From NCBI GenBank assembly GCA_002898555.1, contig BEHR01000007.1:23459-87458 (forward strand): 64,000 nt of DNA, given 5' to 3'. Position 1 is the stretch's first letter. Every line of letters begins with the position of its first letter. The notes below the pieces were generated by a model. The model saw only the letters and a list, made by a program, of their open reading frames with translations, was not told the origin of the DNA and searched no databases. The DNA comes from a bacterium HR15. GTDB lineage: Bacteria; Armatimonadota; Fimbriimonadia; Fimbriimonadales; GBS-DC. The translations under genes were made by a program, and so were the position numbers. This document shows positions 2,866 to 46,064 of the stretch, piece by piece.

Positions 2866-2871
2866 TATAAT
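2866..2871 (+). promoter_or_regulatory. -10 box TATAAT placed 7 nt upstream of the methyltransferase ATG (leaderless arrangement)
   Basis: The sequence reads gaggTATAATcaaagcgATG. There is no Shine-Dalgarno between the box and the ATG at 2879. Confidence 0.45.
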
Positions 2872-2878
2872 CAAAGCG

Positions 2879-3778
2879 ATGAAACCGTCTACCCAATCAC
2901 AGGAGGAACAGGCACAGCCTTTAGACCTGGAGCTATTTTATGCTGAGGAGGTGTCCGAGGCAACGGTTCTCTATGATGCGCGGCGCGCTAATGAACTGGA
3001 TGGGGCGACTTGGACGCGCTATTCCATTTCTATCTGGAGCGACATTCGTAAGACAGCTGAAGAGGTTGCCCTGAAACATCCCGCCATGTTCCCTGCCGCA
3101 CTGCCTGCTCGGCTCATCGAATGCTACACGCGCCGTGGGATGACCGTGCTCGATCCCTTCTTAGGAGTAGGCAGTACCCTGATCGCTGCCAAACAGTTGG
3201 GTAGGCATGGCATCGGCATCGAGCTGAATCCTGAATATGCCCGCATTGCAGAAACCCGACTGGAAACGCTCACCCTGGAACAGGAGTGGAGCGAATCTGG
3301 GGAGAAAGTAGACTGTCGTGTTTATGTGGGCGATGCAAACGAATTGGATCAGTTCGTGGAACCCGAAAGCATCGATCTGGTTGTAACTTCTCCACCTTAC
3401 TGGGATATTCTGCTGGAAAAGCGTACGGCTGACTACAAGCCTATTCGCCACTACGGCGGGGAGGAAAAGGATTTAGGCAAGATTCGTGACTATAATCAAT
3501 TTCTGAAAGCGATTCAGTCGATTTTCCGTAAGGTGTATACGGTTCTCAAACCTGGAGCCTACTGCTGTGTCGTGGTGATGGACATCCGCAAAAAAAATCG
3601 TTTTTATCCCTATCACTCCGATCTCGCGATGCATCTTCAGGAAGTTGGTTTTATTTATGATGATCTTATTATCTGGGATCGACGGCATGAGTACAACAAC
3701 CTGCGCCCTTTGGGCTACCCTTCTGTATTCCGTATTAATAAAGTGCATGAATTTATCTTGATTTTGCAGCGACCGTAG
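2879..3778 (+). CDS. N4-cytosine or N6-adenine DNA methyltransferase (N6_N4_Mtase type, SPPY catalytic motif, permuted motif order)
   Basis: The AdoMet motif I (VLDPFLGVGSTLIAAKQLGRHGIGIELNP, preceded by HPAMFPAALPARLIE) lies N-terminal. The catalytic motif IV (DLVVTSPPYWD) lies C-terminal to it. The gene is visibly more AT-rich than its neighbours. Confidence 0.85.
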   Translation: MKPSTQSQEEQAQPLDLELFYAEEVSEATVLYDARRANELDGATWTRYSISIWSDIRKTAEEVALKHPAMFPAALPARLIECYTRRGMTVLDPFLGVGSTLIAAKQLGRHGIGIELNPEYARIAETRLETLTLEQEWSESGEKVDCRVYVGDANELDQFVEPESIDLVVTSPPYWDILLEKRTADYKPIRHYGGEEKDLGKIRDYNQFLKAIQSIFRKVYTVLKPGAYCCVVVMDIRKKNRFYPYHSDLAMHLQEVGFIYDDLIIWDRRHEYNNLRPLGYPSVFRINKVHEFILILQRP

Positions 3779-3787
3779 AAGAACGCC

Positions 3788-4714
3788 ATGGACTATTTCG
3801 ATGCAGATGTCGCTTACCTTGTGGGGCTTATCGTTGCCAGGGGGCAGCTGATTGAGCAGGGCGAGGAACGGCGCATCCTTGTTGAGTTTCCCGGCTCTAC
3901 CCTGCAAGTGGAGGGCACCCATTCTGCTTTCGATCAACCCACAGAAATCAAGTTGGGATTGGTCGATATTGCTTGGCGTCTGCGTAATCTACTAGAGACG
4001 GATATAGATATTATTAGCAGTACTCATGGAAACCATACACTATTGGTACACTTCCACAGAAACAACATGATATGGCGCAACCTCCGTCTAATATTAGGTA
4101 GTGCGACACATTTTGGAACATTTACACTACCTAATGTTCTGTTTGATCGAGATACTCCCCTGGAGTGGAAGCACGAGTTTTTGCGCGGTTTCGCTGATGT
4201 GGCGGGTAATATCCGCAGAGCCAACCGTTATGTGGACGGGCGCAATCGGGTGCGCTTGGATGTGCTGAACTATAAGGATAACTGGAAATTACCTGTTCAG
4301 CTCTGTGAACTCTTACAAGATCACTTAAGTATTCCTGTTCAGCTCATCGCTTGGGGGCATCCCAACATGGGCAGAGATTTTCGTGAACATCAACTGAACA
4401 TTTTTGCAGTTCCCTTTCGAAAAATAGGTTTTACCTTCCGACATAAGCAAATAGTTCTCGAAGAATTAGCCCAAGAAGATGAAAAAAACTTCCCCAACGC
4501 GCAGTATATGCCTTGTCCTGGGGAGCGTGCCCTACGACGCACAAAAGAATCCGATGAACGCGAAGCGGACACTCTCCATCTCCCACCAAAACTTTGCGGA
4601 AAACACTTTGACGCCTATTGGCAAATCTGTAGGCAGTTGGGCTGCCGAAAACGCCCTGCTGTGCAAGATATTTCCTATGAAGAGGATGTTGAACAGGAGG
4701 TAATACCAGAATGA
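3788..4714 (+). CDS. double LAGLIDADG-like protein with both catalytic acidic residues substituted
   Basis: Two LAGLIDADG-type helices are present: AYLVGLIVARGQL near the N-terminus and EFLRGFADVAGNIRR at about residue 131. Each is followed by sequence consistent with the beta-beta-alpha-beta-beta-alpha pattern. The C-terminal tail is Cys/His-containing (CPGE...LCGKH...ICRQLGC). The start lies 9 nt after the methyltransferase stop. Confidence 0.6.
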   Translation: MDYFDADVAYLVGLIVARGQLIEQGEERRILVEFPGSTLQVEGTHSAFDQPTEIKLGLVDIAWRLRNLLETDIDIISSTHGNHTLLVHFHRNNMIWRNLRLILGSATHFGTFTLPNVLFDRDTPLEWKHEFLRGFADVAGNIRRANRYVDGRNRVRLDVLNYKDNWKLPVQLCELLQDHLSIPVQLIAWGHPNMGRDFREHQLNIFAVPFRKIGFTFRHKQIVLEELAQEDEKNFPNAQYMPCPGERALRRTKESDEREADTLHLPPKLCGKHFDAYWQICRQLGCRKRPAVQDISYEEDVEQEVIPE

Positions 4715-5223
4715 CACTTCAGAAGGAGCAGGAGATGTATCCTGCAGTTGAGCAGTGGTTGCGAAGATATTTACAGCAGCGTTATCCTCGTCAGCGAATT
4801 ATAACACAAGTGTGTGCGTTCAGGAGACTTAATAAACTGATTAACCAACTCGGAATCGGAGCGTTGCTCCCTCATGAATGGGCGTCGTGGGATGTGCAGG
4901 TGGACATAGTAGGCTTCGTGTGTAGCGCGCAAAAAGCCTCGATTGTCTTAATTGAATGTAAAAGTAGACCTATTGCACTTCCCCATCTCTCCCAGATGAT
5001 CGGCTATTGCCGGGTGGTCAGACCAGCGATGGGGTTGATTCTCTCGCCAAAAGGTATTAGCAACTCGTTGAAAAGACTTCTCACCATCTTTGGTCGGCAA
5101 GATGTGCTGGTCTATGATCAACCTCATCAGCAAGCAGCGCGGTATGTGACCTTGGCTCGCTGGGATGCTCAAAGCAAGTCGCCTGATGCGAGCAGTGTAG
5201 TTCCGTCAGGCGGTTTGTCTTAA
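4711..5223 (+). CDS. small PD-(D/E)XK-fold nuclease-like protein
   Basis: Motif pattern is an N-terminal helix with E (YPAVEQWL), then VQVDIVGF (D), then IVLIECKSR (E-x-K). The ATG overlaps the upstream stop (ATGA), which implies translational coupling. Confidence 0.6.
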   Translation: MTLQKEQEMYPAVEQWLRRYLQQRYPRQRIITQVCAFRRLNKLINQLGIGALLPHEWASWDVQVDIVGFVCSAQKASIVLIECKSRPIALPHLSQMIGYCRVVRPAMGLILSPKGISNSLKRLLTIFGRQDVLVYDQPHQQAARYVTLARWDAQSKSPDASSVVPSGGLS

Positions 5224-26321: not shown

Positions 26322-26386
26322 AAGGCAAGGCTGGCAATCTCACCATGCATTTGCCAGCACACTGGCATAATGGAGGAGGTCATACG

Positions 26387-27268
26387 ATGCGACATGGTAG
26401 AGGCTTTCGAGGCTTTACGCTGATCGAGTTGCTGGTCGTGATTGCGATTATCGCCATCTTGGCGGCGATCCTGTTCCCCGTGTTCGCTCAGGCGCGCGAG
26501 GCTGCTCGTACAACAAGTTGCTTAAGCAATAACAAGCAGATGGGAGCAGCCGTCCTTATGTACGCGAATGACTACGACGAAATGATTGTCCCCGTCATGG
26601 TCTATGCGCCCCAGGGCGCCACACGCTTCTCCCAGGCATACCGGACATGGATTGTACTGGTGCAACCATATATGAAGAACACTGGAATTATTATCTGTCC
26701 TAATGCTATTTACCAGAACAAAGACATAGACACCATTGATACATGGCTCTCGTACGGGATCATGGCAAGGACAGAAGTGTGCGGCTTGCGCCAGTACTGG
26801 AAAGTAGCTGATGCGGGGAGCACAAGGCAGTTAGGTATTGTGGGTGCCATCTACCAAGGCATTGCTGGATACGCTGGACCTCCTGTTTGGGGACTGCAGC
26901 GTGTCACACCCAGCATGACCCTTGGGCAGATTGCCCGCCCTGCCGAGGTTGCTATGGTTCAGGATAGCGGCAATTTCGACACTTGGCATGGTGTCTTTTG
27001 TGATCAAGGAGGTAGTGATGGCTACGGACTGGGCTATTGCGGAGCATGGATCGTTAATGGTCAACAACTAGAGTTCCAGCGTTTTGGTCCCCATCCACGC
27101 CATAAAAGTGGGGAGCGCACCTGTAGTGTGCAGGGCTTTGTTGGGGGTACGCTGGATGTCGTCTATGTGGATGGACATGCGAAGACCATTAAAAATGGCC
27201 AGTTTCTCCGTTGGGCAACTCTCCCGGATGGTCGTAAGTATCTCCCGAGCTATTGGCCTTTTGAATAA
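26387..27268 (+). CDS. prepilin-type N-terminal cleavage/methylation domain protein, DUF1559-like pseudopilin
   Basis: The ATG at 26387 follows GGAGGAGG. The N-terminus is [41 protein letters not shown], a class III signal (G/FTLIE). A C-terminal [11 protein letters not shown] motif is present. Confidence 0.85.
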
Positions 27269-27280
27269 GGAGGCGAAGCC

Positions 27281-27508
27281 ATGCACATGGAAATTCCGAA
27301 ACCCATTGCAGTTGCGATCATCGTCGTAATAGCAGCAGTAGCACTCTTTGTGGTCTACTACTTTGCTGGTGGACAACAGCAAACCGCTAAATCACCGGGC
27401 GTGCTGCCACCTAATGTACAGTTAGGACCAGGAGTAGGTGGTGGAGCGTCTACTCCTAATGCCACGCCTGCTCCACAAAATCCACAAGGGGCTGTCGAAC
27501 TGCGCTGA
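27281..27508 (+). CDS. small single-pass membrane protein with Pro/Gly-rich tail (pseudopilin-associated, copy 1)
   Basis: 75 aa, with AAGGAGG upstream. It has one TM helix (IAVAIIVVIAAVALFVVYYF) followed by a low-complexity P/G/Q tail. The layout matches the ORFs at 30451 and 31498. Confidence 0.6.
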   Translation: MHMEIPKPIAVAIIVVIAAVALFVVYYFAGGQQQTAKSPGVLPPNVQLGPGVGGGASTPNATPAPQNPQGAVELR

Positions 27509-27525
27509 AAGAACATCCAAGTCTA

Positions 27526-27566
27526 AAGCCTTGCCAACCGCCAAGTAGGGCTGGTTGGCAAGGCTT
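27526..27566. terminator. bidirectional hairpin between convergent genes
   Basis: A perfect 14-bp stem (AAGCCTTGCCAACC / GGTTGGCAAGGCTT) with a 13-nt loop. Short T-runs lie on both sides (TTT on the reverse-strand reading). Confidence 0.6.
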
Positions 27567-27594
27567 CGTTGACATATGTTCCGAGCGGACGCAA

Positions 27595-28941
27595 TTAACA
27601 ACCCCGCCCTAGGTTGATCAACACGATTAGCAGATCAGCATCGTCCACGCAACCATCCTGATTAATATCGGCAGAACCGCACCTGCCGCAACATCCCCAT
27701 GCCATAAGCACTGCTATCAGGTCCGCATCACTAACACACCCATCGCAGTCGATATCTCCAAAAGGTTCAAGGGGACAAACTGTATCTAAAGTATATCCCA
27801 TCTCTCTCATCGCCCCACGCGTAAGCACAAGGTTAAACCCCCAGCCTACAATATAGCGCCCATTAGGAGTGATAGCTGCTCCAGCGGCAAGATGCGAGAT
27901 CGGATCACCCGGCAGCAGGTGAGCATATGTCTGATTGAGATCCTCCATTCCTCGTGCTGGTGTCCAACGAAAAGCATGTAGCCGGCGATCAGAATTGCTC
28001 GCTTCGCCAACAACAATAAAGCCATCTGCAGAGACATCATAGGCACGACTATAACTGCCACCCGGTAAAATTCCGAGATCTTGCATACCATCTGTTGATG
28101 TCCATCGAAAAGCATGGATGGTACCTTCTGCCGTCTTAGATTCTCCAACTACAATTGTTCCATTTTCTGATATACCGTAGGCACAGCTATAGTTGCCTCC
28201 AAGAGTGCCTAGGTCTTGTACGAGATATACACCTGAACAGTCAGCGTACCAACGAACGGCATGAACTTCGCCATCAGGCGTTTCTGCACAGCCACTGATC
28301 CAGTGTCCATCCGCTGAGACTGCGTAAGCAATGCTTCGGCGTCCCCCTAAGGTACCCAAGTCCTGCATACGCCCGCAGGCTTCTTCCCAACGGAACGCTC
28401 TCATAACTCCTTCATTATTGTCTGCCCATCCCACCACAACTGCTCCATCTGCCGAGACATCGTAAGCCCAGCTAAGTTCACCTCCTAAGGTGCCCAGGTT
28501 CTGCATAGATCCTCCTACCCAGCGAAAAGCATTATGGACTACCCATGCCTCTGGACAACCAGATACACCTACAACTATAGAGCCATTTGCAGAAATGCCA
28601 AAGGCCCAACTCCAATTGTTTGCAGGGGGATCGCAAATTTCAAGGGTGCCTAAGTTACTTGACGGCGCTACGTATGATGTCCCATAGTTGGCGATCCAAG
28701 TCGAAGCATTAAACATCGATTCTAAACCTCCAAAGTATGCTTGGCCAACTACTAACAAACCATCTGGCGTAACGTGCTGGGCTCGGCTCCAGTTGCCACC
28801 ATGCATGGGATCATCTGGTGCTCCGTCGAAAGGAAGAAGCCATACCAGGCTCGGAGTCTGCGAACATGCAATGCCGGTCAGCAATATCGCTAGTAGTGTT
28901 GCCAGATTCAATCCGAAGTTGCGTTTCAGCGCTTTCATCAT
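27595..28941 (-). CDS. secreted HAF-family repeat protein with C-terminal Cys-rich dockerin-type module
   Basis: 448 aa with a signal peptide and lipobox-like LTGIAC. It has repeated GTLGG..S.AY.VSADG..VVG...HAFRW units. The C-terminus carries two Ca-loop-like segments (DIDCDGCVSDADL and DINQDGCVDDADL). The gene is markedly AT-richer than its flanks. Confidence 0.75.
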   Translation of the reverse strand: MMKALKRNFGLNLATLLAILLTGIACSQTPSLVWLLPFDGAPDDPMHGGNWSRAQHVTPDGLLVVGQAYFGGLESMFNASTWIANYGTSYVAPSSNLGTLEICDPPANNWSWAFGISANGSIVVGVSGCPEAWVVHNAFRWVGGSMQNLGTLGGELSWAYDVSADGAVVVGWADNNEGVMRAFRWEEACGRMQDLGTLGGRRSIAYAVSADGHWISGCAETPDGEVHAVRWYADCSGVYLVQDLGTLGGNYSCAYGISENGTIVVGESKTAEGTIHAFRWTSTDGMQDLGILPGGSYSRAYDVSADGFIVVGEASNSDRRLHAFRWTPARGMEDLNQTYAHLLPGDPISHLAAGAAITPNGRYIVGWGFNLVLTRGAMREMGYTLDTVCPLEPFGDIDCDGCVSDADLIAVLMAWGCCGRCGSADINQDGCVDDADLLIVLINLGRGC

Positions 28942-43534: not shown

Positions 43535-45814
43535 TCATCTACCGTTTGAGTCTTTCCCTTCATAACCAACCTGCGTTTCGAAAAGCGCCAGTTGCAGAGG
43601 CTCGCTTGAATGCTGAGGCATTTCCGATAAAGCCATATTGTGGAACATCATCAGCGCACTCAGGAACCACTCCTGCGACGGTTCCCAGCCCTCACCTACG
43701 CAACTGGCAGAGCGCAGCAACTCACCGACATAGTGCAGGTACAGCAAGTTGCGGTTACCGCTGTGTGGATACTGTCCGACAACCTGTTGTGCACGCGCCA
43801 ACGCGTCCTCAGGAGCATGAGACAACACCATATAGGGTTGCGACTGCTTCTGACACATTAGTACCAGATCCGCATCCAGTGCTTGCTTGTTGCGGATATG
43901 GGGGTTGACACGATACTCGCTCTGAACGGGGAAGAAGTCCACGATGCGGAAACCGCTCCGCCGGACGGCACAGAAAATCGTCCACCAGGCACGGGGATTC
44001 GTGTGATGGAAAGTGAAAATCAGCTGTCCTTGCTCCTTCAGCACGCGATGGCACTCGCGAAAAACCGCCGTGAGCAGATTCAGATACTCTTTCTCGCTCT
44101 TGCCTTGCCCTTTGTTCACAACAGCTTCACCCTCAGTAGGAACCAGCTCTGTACGGAAGCATGGGTCTCTCACTAATCGAGAGAGCCAAACATAGAAAAA
44201 GTTCGACAGCTCTGAGTAATGCACATTATCGTAGTAAGGAGGATCGGTAATCACAAGGTCGATGCTGGCATCGGGGATGGCTGTTAGCCGCGCCGAGTCA
44301 CCACACAAGAGCATCGCTCCTCGCTCGGTTTGCATGAGCGCTGCAAAACTTTCCACGAGCTGCGCCCCTATCCACTCTGTGTTAGCATACCGTGTAATCA
44401 CTTCGCCTGCGCGGCTCTTGTATCGCTCAAACGGCTTTTGGCAGTAGAGCTTCGCTTTTCGATAGCGCTGATAGCAATTAACAAAGGTACCCGCACCTTC
44501 TTCACCAACCCCCCACACATTGCTCTCCACAGGCATTGTAGTTAGCGGTAATGCATGATAGTTGAACAGGTGATGTAACTTGCGATGCGGATAATTGTAC
44601 GGTGTCATCATGTTATTGTATTCAAGCATGTTCGAAACAACGGTGTAGAAGCAGTTTTGGTACTCAGGGTCTTCAATCTGTTGGATGGCGCGTATCAGGG
44701 TATTCAGCGATAACAATTGACGCTTATTGAACAGGTCGCGATAGCGATGATAACCGTGTTGAATCCAACGACGCGAGGAGGTGCCTAATGGTATTTGTGT
44801 GTTGGGCAGAATGAGTTCAGATTCTTGCGTGTGAAACAACTGCTCTATCTGCTGGAGCCGTTCCCGGTCAACGGTGTCAGGCGATTTATACAGACGCGTG
44901 TTGCAGGTGGGGCACCAATATTCTATAGCGATAAGCATTTCACTCAAAGACGCGCCTTTGCGAATGGTCTCAAGCAGGTTGATGGGCTCAGAGGTGCAAC
45001 GGCAGTGGTAATAGCCATGAGTGTAATTCCCCTGTCGGGGATCGAAGACATGCTTGCACTGTGGGCATATCGCCAGTGAATCACCTCCCCATTGAAAAAG
45101 ACGGAGACATCGCGAGCAGAATACGGTTGCAGGATTAGCATGGGACAAAGGACGGTTTCTGCTCGCACCCTCGTTGAGCAAGGTGCGCTTATAAAGCAAA
45201 ACGCACTGCTGACAGTGCGGGCATGGAACATGGCGTATCCAAAATGCATAGAGGGTTTCGCCCACCGCACCGCATTCGGAACACTGCGTTTGATAGTATT
45301 GCTTGATTTGCTCGCCCGCGGTAGCAGCGATTTGCTGAAAGTAGGAGTCCAGCCGCTCGATATCTATGATTTTCAAGTTCTCGCGTCCAATCCAGTAGGC
45401 AACAGGATTAAGGTCACAGCCAATCACGCGCGCACCCATTCGGTTGGCTTCTACCAAAGTAGTTCCCCCGCCCATAAAGGGGTCAAGGATCACCCATTCG
45501 CTCAGATTGTGATTCTGAAAGTAAGGGGAGTGCGGTTCCAGATCCCCCAGCTGGTTCACTGTGAGAAGTGTCTCTCGCAGTTCAGGATGCGTTGCCAGCA
45601 GGATAATCGCGCGAAACAGGGTCCCGGGGCGCCGTGCCCACCATTTATGCAGGGAGTAAATGGGTCGATAATGCTGGCGCTTGCCTGTCTCGTCCTGCGC
45701 TAGCTTGCTAATGAGCTGTGCCACCTGCAAGCTCGGAGCCAATCGCGACAACTCCTTAGAAGGGGTCATCTTCGTAAAATACACAGCCATCTTCGGGTCT
45801 GGATATTTGGTCAT
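43535..45814 (-). CDS. Zn-ribbon-containing DNA methyltransferase (COG1743 / DUF1156-type, DPPY motif)
   Basis: ORF 43535..45886. The ATG at 45814 has a GGGAG SD. It carries the N-terminal IYSLHKWWARRP hallmark, motif I (LDPFMGGGTTLVEANRMGARVIGCDLNP), several CxxC pairs (CSECG..CPHCQ, CSRC..CPQCK, CPTC) and motif IV (DLVITDPPYYDNVHY). The gene is AT-richer than its flanks. Confidence 0.8.
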   Translation of the reverse strand: MTKYPDPKMAVYFTKMTPSKELSRLAPSLQVAQLISKLAQDETGKRQHYRPIYSLHKWWARRPGTLFRAIILLATHPELRETLLTVNQLGDLEPHSPYFQNHNLSEWVILDPFMGGGTTLVEANRMGARVIGCDLNPVAYWIGRENLKIIDIERLDSYFQQIAATAGEQIKQYYQTQCSECGAVGETLYAFWIRHVPCPHCQQCVLLYKRTLLNEGASRNRPLSHANPATVFCSRCLRLFQWGGDSLAICPQCKHVFDPRQGNYTHGYYHCRCTSEPINLLETIRKGASLSEMLIAIEYWCPTCNTRLYKSPDTVDRERLQQIEQLFHTQESELILPNTQIPLGTSSRRWIQHGYHRYRDLFNKRQLLSLNTLIRAIQQIEDPEYQNCFYTVVSNMLEYNNMMTPYNYPHRKLHHLFNYHALPLTTMPVESNVWGVGEEGAGTFVNCYQRYRKAKLYCQKPFERYKSRAGEVITRYANTEWIGAQLVESFAALMQTERGAMLLCGDSARLTAIPDASIDLVITDPPYYDNVHYSELSNFFYVWLSRLVRDPCFRTELVPTEGEAVVNKGQGKSEKEYLNLLTAVFRECHRVLKEQGQLIFTFHHTNPRAWWTIFCAVRRSGFRIVDFFPVQSEYRVNPHIRNKQALDADLVLMCQKQSQPYMVLSHAPEDALARAQQVVGQYPHSGNRNLLYLHYVGELLRSASCVGEGWEPSQEWFLSALMMFHNMALSEMPQHSSEPLQLALFETQVGYEGKDSNGR

Positions 45815-46064
45815 AGCCACGCTCCCTGTAGAACTCCAGAAAGTTTGCGCGATATTCAGAACTACAGAAAGGGAACTCATCGTCAAACTCGCGCCTTAGG
45901 TGTCTAAGCACCCTGCTTCCAAGCGATTCGGCACGTTGCTCGCTGAACGCCGCTTGATACCAGCTGATGAGCTGGCTCTCCTGAATGACGCCATTAATCC
46001 TGTGCCCTAACTGCTCAGCCACTCGTGTGATAGTGTCTACTTCTGCGTCGCGACAGACAATCAC
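45756..46064 (-). CDS. hypothetical small acidic protein upstream of, and overlapping, the methylase start
   Basis: 102 aa with a GTG start and no recognisable motif. It overlaps the first codons of the methylase in another frame. Coding status is uncertain. Confidence 0.35.
   Translation of the reverse strand: MIVCRDAEVDTITRVAEQLGHRINGVIQESQLISWYQAAFSEQRAESLGSRVLRHLRREFDDEFPFCSSEYRANFLEFYRERGYDQISRPEDGCVFYEDDPF

Follow-up and report, generated by a model that had tools for sequence, protein, structure and literature searches.

A mobile cassette of a DNA methyltransferase, a LAGLIDADG-fold protein and a minimal PD-(D/E)XK nuclease: a candidate restriction-modification system with a two-subunit endonuclease

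Three close-packed genes on the forward strand, here named g1, g2 and g3, span positions 2879-5223 of a 64-kb stretch of DNA from the Armatimonadota bacterium HR15 (the window, to which all coordinates refer unless a locus is named). An initial annotation had described them as a low-G+C cassette encoding an amino-methyltransferase, a double-LAGLIDADG protein and a small PD-(D/E)XK nuclease, and had proposed a horizontally acquired nuclease system, which we followed up by computational analysis. The open reading frames are arranged as it described, with 9 nt between g1 and g2 and an ATGA stop/start overlap joining g2 to g3 (Table 1). The G+C content of the cassette is 48.7%, compared with 58.7% +/- 2.5% in 570 same-size windows elsewhere, and represents the minimum of the whole 64 kb. 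The lower end of the earlier estimate of 38-50% is too low, because local 300-nt values range from 44 to 57%.

Table 1. Genes, motifs and other elements of the cassette (window positions; residue numbers are those of the respective protein).
Feature	Positions	Strand	Basis or remark
g1, predicted DNA methyltransferase, 299 aa	2879..3778	+	
g1 AdoMet-binding motif I, DPFLGVGST, residues 92-100	3152..3178	+	translation; aligned to motif I of 2zie
g1 catalytic motif IV, TSPPYW, residues 170-175	3386..3403	+	translation; aligned to VVTSPPYW of 2zie
g2, predicted double-LAGLIDADG fold, 308 aa	3788..4714	+	
g2 LAGLIDADG-like helix 1, YLVGLIVARG, residues 10-19	3815..3844	+	alignments, sub-family table
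g2 LAGLIDADG-like helix 2, FLRGFADVAGN, residues 131-141	4178..4210	+	alignments, sub-family table
g2 domain 2 beta1'-beta2' hairpin, residues 140-160, GNIRRANRYVDGRNRVRLDVL	4205..4267	+	net charge +3.2
g2 GHPN...REHQxN block, beta3'-beta4' hairpin, residues 190-204	4355..4399	+	kept across all sub-families
g2 basic C-terminal tail, C243...H273...C281...C286 pattern	4514..4645	+	alignments, charge
g3, predicted minimal PD-(D/E)XK nuclease, 170 aa	4711..5223	+	
g3 catalytic core, D65 on beta2 and E82-C-K84 on beta3	4903..4962	+	alignments; model strands 66-71 and 76-83
g3 QxxxY motif, Q95...Y99, helix after beta3	4993..5007	+	invariant in alignments
TATAAT hexamer, possible -10 box	2866..2871	+	read from sequence; 7 nt before g1 ATG

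The product of g1 matches the methyltransferase (MTase) family PF01555 with 131 bits (E 7e-38; cut-off 26.7) and Type II MTase models of PADLOC with E-values as low as 1.6e-50, and both motifs quoted in the initial annotation are present. Motif I, which binds S-adenosylmethionine (AdoMet), lies ahead of the catalytic motif IV. The closest solved structure, TTHA0409 of Thermus thermophilus (2zie; E = 1.5e-31), aligns in two swapped segments. Motifs I (FxGxG) and IV (TSPPYW) are alike in g1 and in TTHA0409 and other beta-class N4/N6 MTases, whereas the AdoMet-binding and catalytic halves are exchanged. The sequence thus identifies g1 as a predicted N6/N4 amino-methyltransferase that is circularly permuted relative to beta-class enzymes. 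Some REBASE-derived PADLOC models are nevertheless collinear with it, PDLC03363 and PDLC03391 from end to end. An SPPY motif points to N4-cytosine methylation, and its presence suggests this base specificity for g1.

The g2 product is identical to HRbin15_00772. Its family of well-conserved proteins, about 310 aa in length, comprises 418 matches in a word-index search and 323 representative clusters at E<=1e-3 in an exhaustive profile search. No match above threshold was found in Pfam, NCBIfam, PADLOC-DB v2 or PHROGs, and single-sequence and profile searches of PDB sequences returned chance matches only. The AlphaFold2 model built from 32 sequences has a predicted local distance difference test score (pLDDT) of 87.3 and a predicted template modelling score of 0.88. 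A Foldseek comparison of this model with the PDB yielded 65 matches at E<=1e-3, the best 50 of which are all LAGLIDADG proteins and include no restriction endonuclease (REase). The matches listed comprise I-Tsp061I (E = 5e-8, target TM-score 0.68), the bI3 maturase, I-AniI, I-DmoI, E-DreI, PI-SceI, I-SceI and WhiA. We are confident in the predicted monomeric double-LAGLIDADG fold, which agrees with the two helices recognized earlier.

The canonical active site of this fold appears to have been lost from g2. In active enzymes each LAGLIDADG helix carries a metal-binding Asp or Glu at its C-terminus (D21 and E117 in I-DmoI; PMC3384342), but the equivalent positions of g2 are invariant R18 in helix 1 and A139 in helix 2; other sub-families have K/N and S/T, and neither position is acidic in any sub-family examined. 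WhiA has Arg and Gly at these sites (PMC3384342). No known nuclease motif was detected in g2 with Pfam, NCBIfam or PADLOC. Conservation is concentrated in domain 2, with 37 invariant alignment columns versus 20 in domain 1. The framework motifs RGxADxxG, GHPN and REHQ are kept across all sub-families, as are residues D137, R154, H191-P192-N193, E200-H201 and K220-Q221. The charge is distributed unevenly: domain 1 has a net charge of -4.5, the C-terminal tail one of +5.2, and the hairpin at residues 140-160 is basic and almost invariant within the sub-family of the window. The Cys/His pattern of the tail may form a zinc site; its cysteines are missing from a distant branch of plasmid and phage homologues.

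The sequence of the domain 2 hairpin differs between groups with different MTases. In 56 loci with a g1-type MTase it reads AGNIRxANRYVDGRxRVRLDVL almost without variation, while unrelated sequences are found in a group with two MTases (SSMPSEKDQDQFKRNRIVLQIP), in a group with fused MTases (TGYIRKSNIAFGQxGxHRVYIEIP) and in a group of single-chain fusions. These hairpins make the base contacts in LAGLIDADG enzymes (PMC3384342). The covariation of the hairpin with the MTase complement fits a function as specificity element and a role of g2 in target choice.

For g3 the E / D / ExK layout proposed initially is borne out by family alignments, in which D65, E82-x-K84 and Q95xxxY99 are invariant and E6 is nearly so. 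In the AlphaFold2 model (pLDDT 95.7) D65 opens strand beta2 and the ExK motif lies on beta3, and the predicted core has the order alpha-beta-beta-beta-alpha-beta, with D on beta2 and (D/E)xK on beta3. Its best structural neighbours in Foldseek are the nuclease domains of MspJI, PaqCI, AspBHI, NucS, McrC, EcoRI, EcoT38I, BamHI, FokI, Cap4 and Can2. Many of them are cleavage modules whose recognition function resides in another domain or subunit (e.g. MspJI, PaqCI, FokI and McrC). The profile matches to NA-iREase1, HSDR_N_2, NucS_C and PADLOC PD_DExK (E = 0.063) are below threshold; nothing above threshold was obtained from Pfam, NCBIfam, PADLOC or PHROGs, and comparison with PDB sequences (single-sequence and profile) gave chance matches only. 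The protein is basic (pI about 9-10). A word-index search with g3 alone retrieved one near-identical copy, and its relatives were found with a profile of orthologues derived from the loci. Alignments and model support the prediction of g3 as a PD-(D/E)XK nuclease, the evidence for the fold being weaker than that for g2.

The distribution of the trio was surveyed in 80 loci, with one genome per species. Its bacterial hosts comprise Armatimonadota, Chloroflexota, Poribacteria, Acidobacteriota, Myxococcales, Gemmatimonadales, Zixibacteria, Latescibacterota, Binatia and Hydrothermota, and the archaeal ones Bathyarchaeia, Caldarchaeum, Nitrososphaerales and Jordarchaeia. The three genes occur together in essentially all of the about 80 genomes whose contigs allow this to be seen, and the order g1-g2-g3 is kept, with gaps mostly between -35 and +30 nt, in every locus with a sufficiently long contig except L079. 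The G+C content of the trio is below that of its flanks in 60 of 61 loci (mean difference 8.8 points). Pairwise protein distances of g1, g2 and g3 are correlated across 57 loci (r = 0.88-0.90, Mantel p = 0.001), and the mean identity across loci is 49% for g2 and 42% for g3. The closest relatives of the HR15 cassette (L023, with proteins 75-81% identical, and L001, L004 and L030) have no flanking genes in common with it beyond the trio, and, apart from about 15 Poribacteria genomes that form a syntenic block, no conserved fourth gene was found across the loci. Conserved gene order, unshared flanks, low G+C and co-divergence document that the trio is a self-contained, horizontally transferred unit, and the unrelated contexts in many phyla are in line with the horizontal acquisition proposed at the outset. 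The initial annotation had named three outcomes that would count against it, namely known subunits as matches of g2 and g3, a lack of co-occurrence in other genomes, and rejected folds; all three were tested and none was found.

Two deviating patterns were observed in the survey. In the about 15 Poribacteria genomes (L010, L013, L019-L022, L025, L026, L028 and others) the trio occupies a single syntenic site with the flanks kept on both sides; within this lineage of sponge symbionts it is stably inherited, though mobile elsewhere. L079 (4312-7362) is the sole locus with full flanks that lacks a recognisable g1, and its g2 is preceded by a 389-aa protein without family match and a 161-aa protein that clusters with g3 fragments.

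The pair of g2 and g3 is also found with other MTases. Distant homologues of g2, 24-28% identical across about 90% of the length, are located on two Lactiplantibacillus plantarum plasmids of 6.5 kb and 8.8 kb and in two human-gut phages, and each is followed by an overlapping g3 homologue (hhalign probability 99.8-99.9%). The plasmid and phage copies are annotated as hypothetical proteins in RefSeq/GenBank. Ahead of each of these g2 genes lies a fused methyltransferase of about 700 aa, which combines an EcoRI-type N6-adenine domain (PF13651) with a C5-cytosine domain (PF00145). The neighbour on the plasmid is a YafQ toxin-antitoxin system; one of the phages has an excisionase beside these genes, the second phage a GmrSD type IV restriction enzyme. 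Loci retrieved with divergent g3 sequences contain either two PF01555 MTases (L086 and L075) or one (L090) together with g2 and g3. A further locus, L092, encodes a fused N6-adenine and C5-cytosine MTase, then a 290-aa protein that has no Pfam match, and then a g3 homologue. Overall, g2 and g3 are associated with four MTase configurations: one permuted PF01555 enzyme, two PF01555 enzymes, a fusion of an EcoRI-type N6-adenine and a C5 MTase, and a PF01555 MTase with a gamma-class N6 MTase. The constant part is the g2-g3 pair, and the methyltransferase has been exchanged between lineages. Two or fused MTases are the usual companions of enzymes with asymmetric sites (PMC4081073).

This exchange bears on the idea that g2 is a specificity subunit shared by g1 and g3, comparable with HsdS of Type I systems, in an ATP-independent system of modification, specificity and restriction subunits. 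Such an arrangement would suit the small size of g1 (299 aa), which leaves little space for a large target-recognition domain, the gap of only 9 nt between g1 and g2, and the co-divergence of g1 with g2, which is as tight as that of g3 (r = 0.90). However, PDLC03363 and PDLC03391, which are collinear with g1, represent stand-alone Type II MTases, and the MTases that accompany g2 and g3 belong to unrelated classes, among them a C5 MTase, which normally has its own recognition domain. Fusions of an MTase with g2 were not found either, since the 900-1300-aa proteins that contain g2 are devoid of an MTase domain. We therefore regard a shared specificity subunit as very unlikely.

The mobile-element neighbourhoods speak to a second alternative, a cassette outside defence, which could be either a selfish homing-type element that cuts its empty target site or a methylation-linked repair module resembling Vsr, a small nuclease whose gene adjoins a methyltransferase gene. 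The descent of g2 from homing endonucleases and the ability of restriction-modification (R-M) cassettes to behave selfishly (PMC3384342) are compatible with this proposal, but the insertion contexts vary between genomes and no conserved target gene was seen. Moreover, g3 has a canonical D...ExK motif without a match to the Vsr family, N6-adenine MTases, for which deamination repair is irrelevant, are among the partners, and the genes adjoining the pair on mobile elements serve defence or addiction. We give hardly any credence to a homing or repair function.

Natural fusions connect g2 with g3 directly. The exhaustive profile search recovered about 20 cluster representatives of 539-557 aa in which g2, a linker and g3 form a single chain. 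In P0189, P0198 and P0225 the g2 region comprises residues 3-338 (hhalign 100%), with a zinc-ribbon insertion in domain 1. A linker rich in Lys and Glu leads from there to a full g3 domain (residues 404-555, hhalign 99.8%) that keeps the D...E-A-K...QxxxY signature. The contig of P0189 (L093) harbors a MarR-like gene, an extra g3 paralogue and, on the opposite strand, two MTases, one of PF01555 and one of the gamma-class N6_Mtase/Eco57I/TaqI_C type. According to the fusions, the two proteins function as a single enzyme, which has a Type IIS-like layout in the fused form; for the split form of the window we infer a contact between g2 and g3.

The same fusions are pertinent to the assumption that g3 is a self-sufficient homodimeric Type IIP REase and that g2, like WhiA or a C protein, is a controller which delays nuclease expression after entry of the cassette. 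With 170 aa, g3 is within the range of small REases, of which PvuII is an example. WhiA, a structural relative of g2 that acts as a transcription factor, has R and G as its catalytic-position residues; the g2 gene lies ahead of g3 and overlaps it, as is often the case for C genes; and L088 and L089 have g3 but no g2. Yet about 20 clusters of single-chain fusions are hard to reconcile with a regulator, and g2 is large (308 aa) and better conserved than g3. The structural neighbours of g3 are cleavage domains devoid of recognition functions, and L093 offers a separate candidate regulator in its MarR-like gene. The two or fused MTases of several sub-families are furthermore a signature of asymmetric targets, which does not fit a small homodimer (PMC4081073). 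A purely regulatory g2 is accordingly improbable in our view.

Another alternative with a similarly low probability states that both subunits are nucleases, as in the Type IIT heterodimers BspD6I, BtsI and BsrDI, so that g2 would recognise the site and nick one strand via a non-canonical active site (e.g. H191, N193, E200, H201, D137 and K220) and g3 the other. These polar residues of g2 are invariant even in the plasmid/phage branch, where the hairpin differs, and lie on a beta-beta-alpha element in the model. The large subunit of the known large-plus-small heterodimers has its own catalytic site (PMC4081073), and the presence of an ExK-less g3 paralogue next to fusions hints that one active g3 domain may be insufficient or may need no dimerisation. 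On the other hand, the three motif collections searched contain no nuclease signature that matches g2, its canonical acids are replaced in every sub-family, and the conserved residues might just as well have a structural role, touch the DNA backbone or belong to the interface with g3.

The extra g3 paralogue that follows a fusion in L093 (2857-3354) and L081 (1147-1596) has kept the Asp but lost E-x-K and may serve as an inactive dimerisation partner. Three sets of apparent fusions were discarded. P0108 (491 aa) was rejected as a frameshift or assembly artefact, with the N-terminus of g3 in another frame; P0145 (L081), in which a C-terminal g2 remnant is joined to g3 on a 1.6-kb contig, was set aside; and the g2-containing proteins of 900-1300 aa were rejected as MTase-g2 fusions, because neither an MTase nor any other Pfam domain was found in them. 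The latter proteins (P0206, P0210, P0213, P0214, P0243, P0281 and P0293) carry the g2-like LAGLIDADG region at their C-terminus, and no Pfam family was recognized in their N-terminal 600-1000 aa.

The cassette of the window exhibits typical features of a Type II R-M system: an MTase with intact motifs I and IV is located beside a nuclease with a PD-(D/E)XK catalytic motif, the genes travel as a unit, and the nuclease module has been recombined with different MTases. Computation shows the predicted folds, the motifs, synteny, co-divergence, MTase swapping, g2-g3 fusions and residence on mobile elements. We have high confidence that the cassette is a unit of the R-M type whose g2 and g3 cooperate. 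We consider it probable that it represents a mobile Type II system of the IIS/IIT kind with a two-subunit endonuclease. The division of labour suggested by the initial annotation, with recognition by g2 and cleavage by g3, gains computational support from MTase swapping and single-chain fusions, and we favour it with moderate confidence. With slightly more reserve we propose that LAGLIDADG has been domesticated as the recognition subunit of a widespread family of R-M endonucleases, present in hundreds of clusters from bacteria, archaea, plasmids and phages, in which a catalytically dead scaffold would use half of its saddle to read a short and probably asymmetric site and would deliver a detachable generic PD-(D/E)XK nuclease.

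According to this model, g1 would methylate the target sites in the host DNA, with N4 of cytosine as the probable position, and thereby protect them. The g2 protein, devoid of a LAGLIDADG active site, would bind the unmethylated target mainly via the basic, highly conserved beta-sheet of domain 2 and the basic tail. It would recruit g3, a nuclease that lacks a recognition domain, and might hold it on the acidic domain 1 or on the tail; g3 would then cut the unmethylated DNA, presumably in phage defence. The architecture would correspond to that of Type IIS/IIT enzymes, a recognition module plus a generic cleavage module, distributed over two polypeptides. The initial annotation had considered a modification-dependent or a modification-protected nuclease; our computational results favour the second possibility, a classical R-M system, and we have dropped the first.

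Several observations weigh against the proposed roles of g2 and g3. The g2 protein is acidic overall (pI about 6), with domain 1 at about -4.5, and thereby differs from true homing endonucleases, whose saddle is basic throughout. Its charge pattern resembles that of WhiA, whose LAGLIDADG domain may not bind DNA (PMC3384342), and the residues conserved in all g2 sub-families could form a non-canonical active site or a protein interface instead of contacting DNA. The covariation of hairpin and MTase is confounded by overall sequence divergence. The Foldseek E-values of g3 are modest, ranging from 4e-3 to 0.5 with none at or below 1e-3. In L088 and L089 the partner of a g3 homologue is not g2 but an unrelated protein of 348 aa, which suggests that g3 can work with other partners or alone. 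Finally, a single MTase for what is presumably an asymmetric, monomeric binder needs explaining.

The 348-aa partner in L088 (2927-4489) and L089 (1556-3118) has no detectable similarity to g2 (hhalign probability 0.09%) and carries a C-terminal PD-(D/E)XK-like motif of its own ('D...IEGK'). A PF01555 MTase precedes the pair, which occupies the Macro/fumarase-C site where L086 has its MTase-MTase-g2-g3 cassette. Judged from these gene arrangements, the small nuclease can evidently change partners. Another variation is seen in the Anaeroplasmataceae phage NatCom_34063 (L085, 4202-6295), where MTase, g2 and g3 are directly followed by a GmrSD-family gene, a combination that can be read as a small phage-borne defence cluster.

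The closest functional counterparts of the cassette are Type IIS/IIT heterodimers and FokI-type enzymes. BspD6I/BstNBI, BtsI and BsrDI likewise consist of two endonuclease polypeptides, the small one being a bare PD-(D/E)XK domain (186 aa in BspD6I versus 170 aa in g3; PMC1950550, PMC4081073), and are likewise accompanied by one, two or fused MTases. In these heterodimers recognition belongs to the large subunit and the small catalytic one is non-specific, a split that the architecture, the fusions and the covariation of hairpin and MTase would fit in the case of g2 and g3. They also have fused single-chain relatives, BsrI and BsmI in the case of BsrDI and BtsI (PMC4081073, PMC1950550), just as g2-g3 fusions exist here. 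However, the large subunits of BspD6I, BtsI and BsrDI are PD-(D/E)XK proteins of 480-600 aa with their own catalytic site, whereas g2 has a LAGLIDADG fold without the canonical one. Type IIT enzymes are defined by two different catalytic sites, one per subunit (PMC4081073), and g2 possesses neither the canonical acids nor a detectable nuclease motif. PDB sequence searches gave no match that would link either protein to a known Type IIT subunit, whether large or small. FokI-type Type IIS enzymes follow the same modular logic, and the g2-linker-g3 chains (about 540-557 aa) share their exact layout; the nuclease domains of FokI and PaqCI are among the structural neighbours of g3. The recognition module of FokI-type enzymes is a helix-turn-helix/winged-helix domain, in contrast to the LAGLIDADG module, which is encoded by a separate gene in the window.

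In terms of structure, the nearest relatives are archaeal and organellar LAGLIDADG enzymes and WhiA. The WhiA/DUF199 proteins are, like g2, monomeric double-LAGLIDADG proteins of about 300 aa with non-acidic (Arg/Gly) catalytic positions (PMC3384342); they share an acidic domain 1 and a more basic domain 2, and the structures 3hyi and 3hyj match g2. Unlike WhiA, g2 contains no WhiA N-terminal, LAGLIDADG_WhiA or HTH_WhiA domain (Pfam and NCBIfam, E<=1), its C-terminal tail is basic with Cys/His residues instead of a helix-turn-helix, and it is always found alongside MTase and nuclease genes. The fold of g2 also matches LAGLIDADG homing endonucleases and maturases (I-Tsp061I, I-DmoI, I-AniI and the bI3 maturase), but both metal-binding acids are replaced, the g2 gene is part of neither an intron or intein nor a free-standing homing locus, and g2 always lies between MTase and PD-(D/E)XK genes. 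Neither homology nor defining catalytic features place the cassette in any of the families compared.

Restriction endonucleases are known to be built on PD-(D/E)XK, HNH, GIY-YIG, PLD or half-pipe folds. A 2012 review gives restriction-enzyme relatives for the PD-(D/E)XK, GIY-YIG and HNH homing folds, and for LAGLIDADG names only maturases and WhiA (PMC3384342); a review of Type II enzymes from 2014 does not mention LAGLIDADG (PMC4081073). Full-text literature searches combining LAGLIDADG with restriction-modification or anti-phage terms, with REBASE outside the search, returned no description of an R-M or defence component with this fold. Among the major homing-endonuclease folds, LAGLIDADG is the only one without a restriction-enzyme counterpart in the literature searched. 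If the proposed reading is true, LAGLIDADG would be added to the recognition folds of restriction enzymology, and a second, independent case of LAGLIDADG domestication would be at hand, in which a scaffold for targets of about 20 bp has been re-tuned to the short sites needed in defence. The family would then be a natural analogue of engineered meganuclease-nuclease fusions and would provide enzyme engineers with compact, thermostable and modular parts for recognition and cleavage in split and fused form. It would also assign a function to several hundred clusters of 'hypothetical proteins', including the L. plantarum plasmid and human-gut phage genes.

The spacers at the edges of the cassette are short, 49 nt upstream and 31 nt downstream. 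The upstream neighbour, which ends at 2829, had been called a transporter; it is a 730-aa membrane protein without a family match. The convergent downstream neighbour is a glucose/sorbosone dehydrogenase (PF07995) and hence the sugar dehydrogenase reported before. The TATAAT hexamer, taken initially as the single promoter box, is present and is the sole promoter-like element upstream of the cassette, but a consensus scan of the forward strand found no full -35/-10 site, so that it is a weak candidate for the cassette promoter. If it is a -10 box, its position only 7 nt before the start codon of g1, without an intervening Shine-Dalgarno sequence, suggests a leaderless or near-leaderless transcript.

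Two further patches of low G+C content (about 50% each) lie in the window. The first, at 26345-28941, encodes a 307-aa protein that combines a prepilin-type methylation motif at the N-terminus with DUF1559, and its opposite strand carries a 448-aa protein without family match. The second, at 43535-45886 on the reverse strand, encodes a DNA methyltransferase of 783 aa (domains DUF1156 and N6_N4_Mtase), for which a partner nuclease was not recognised. Its best PADLOC matches are models of the PglX, HmaB and DUF1156_MTase types, and its neighbours are an RND efflux pump (AcrB and HlyD families) and a 361-aa protein that matches no family.

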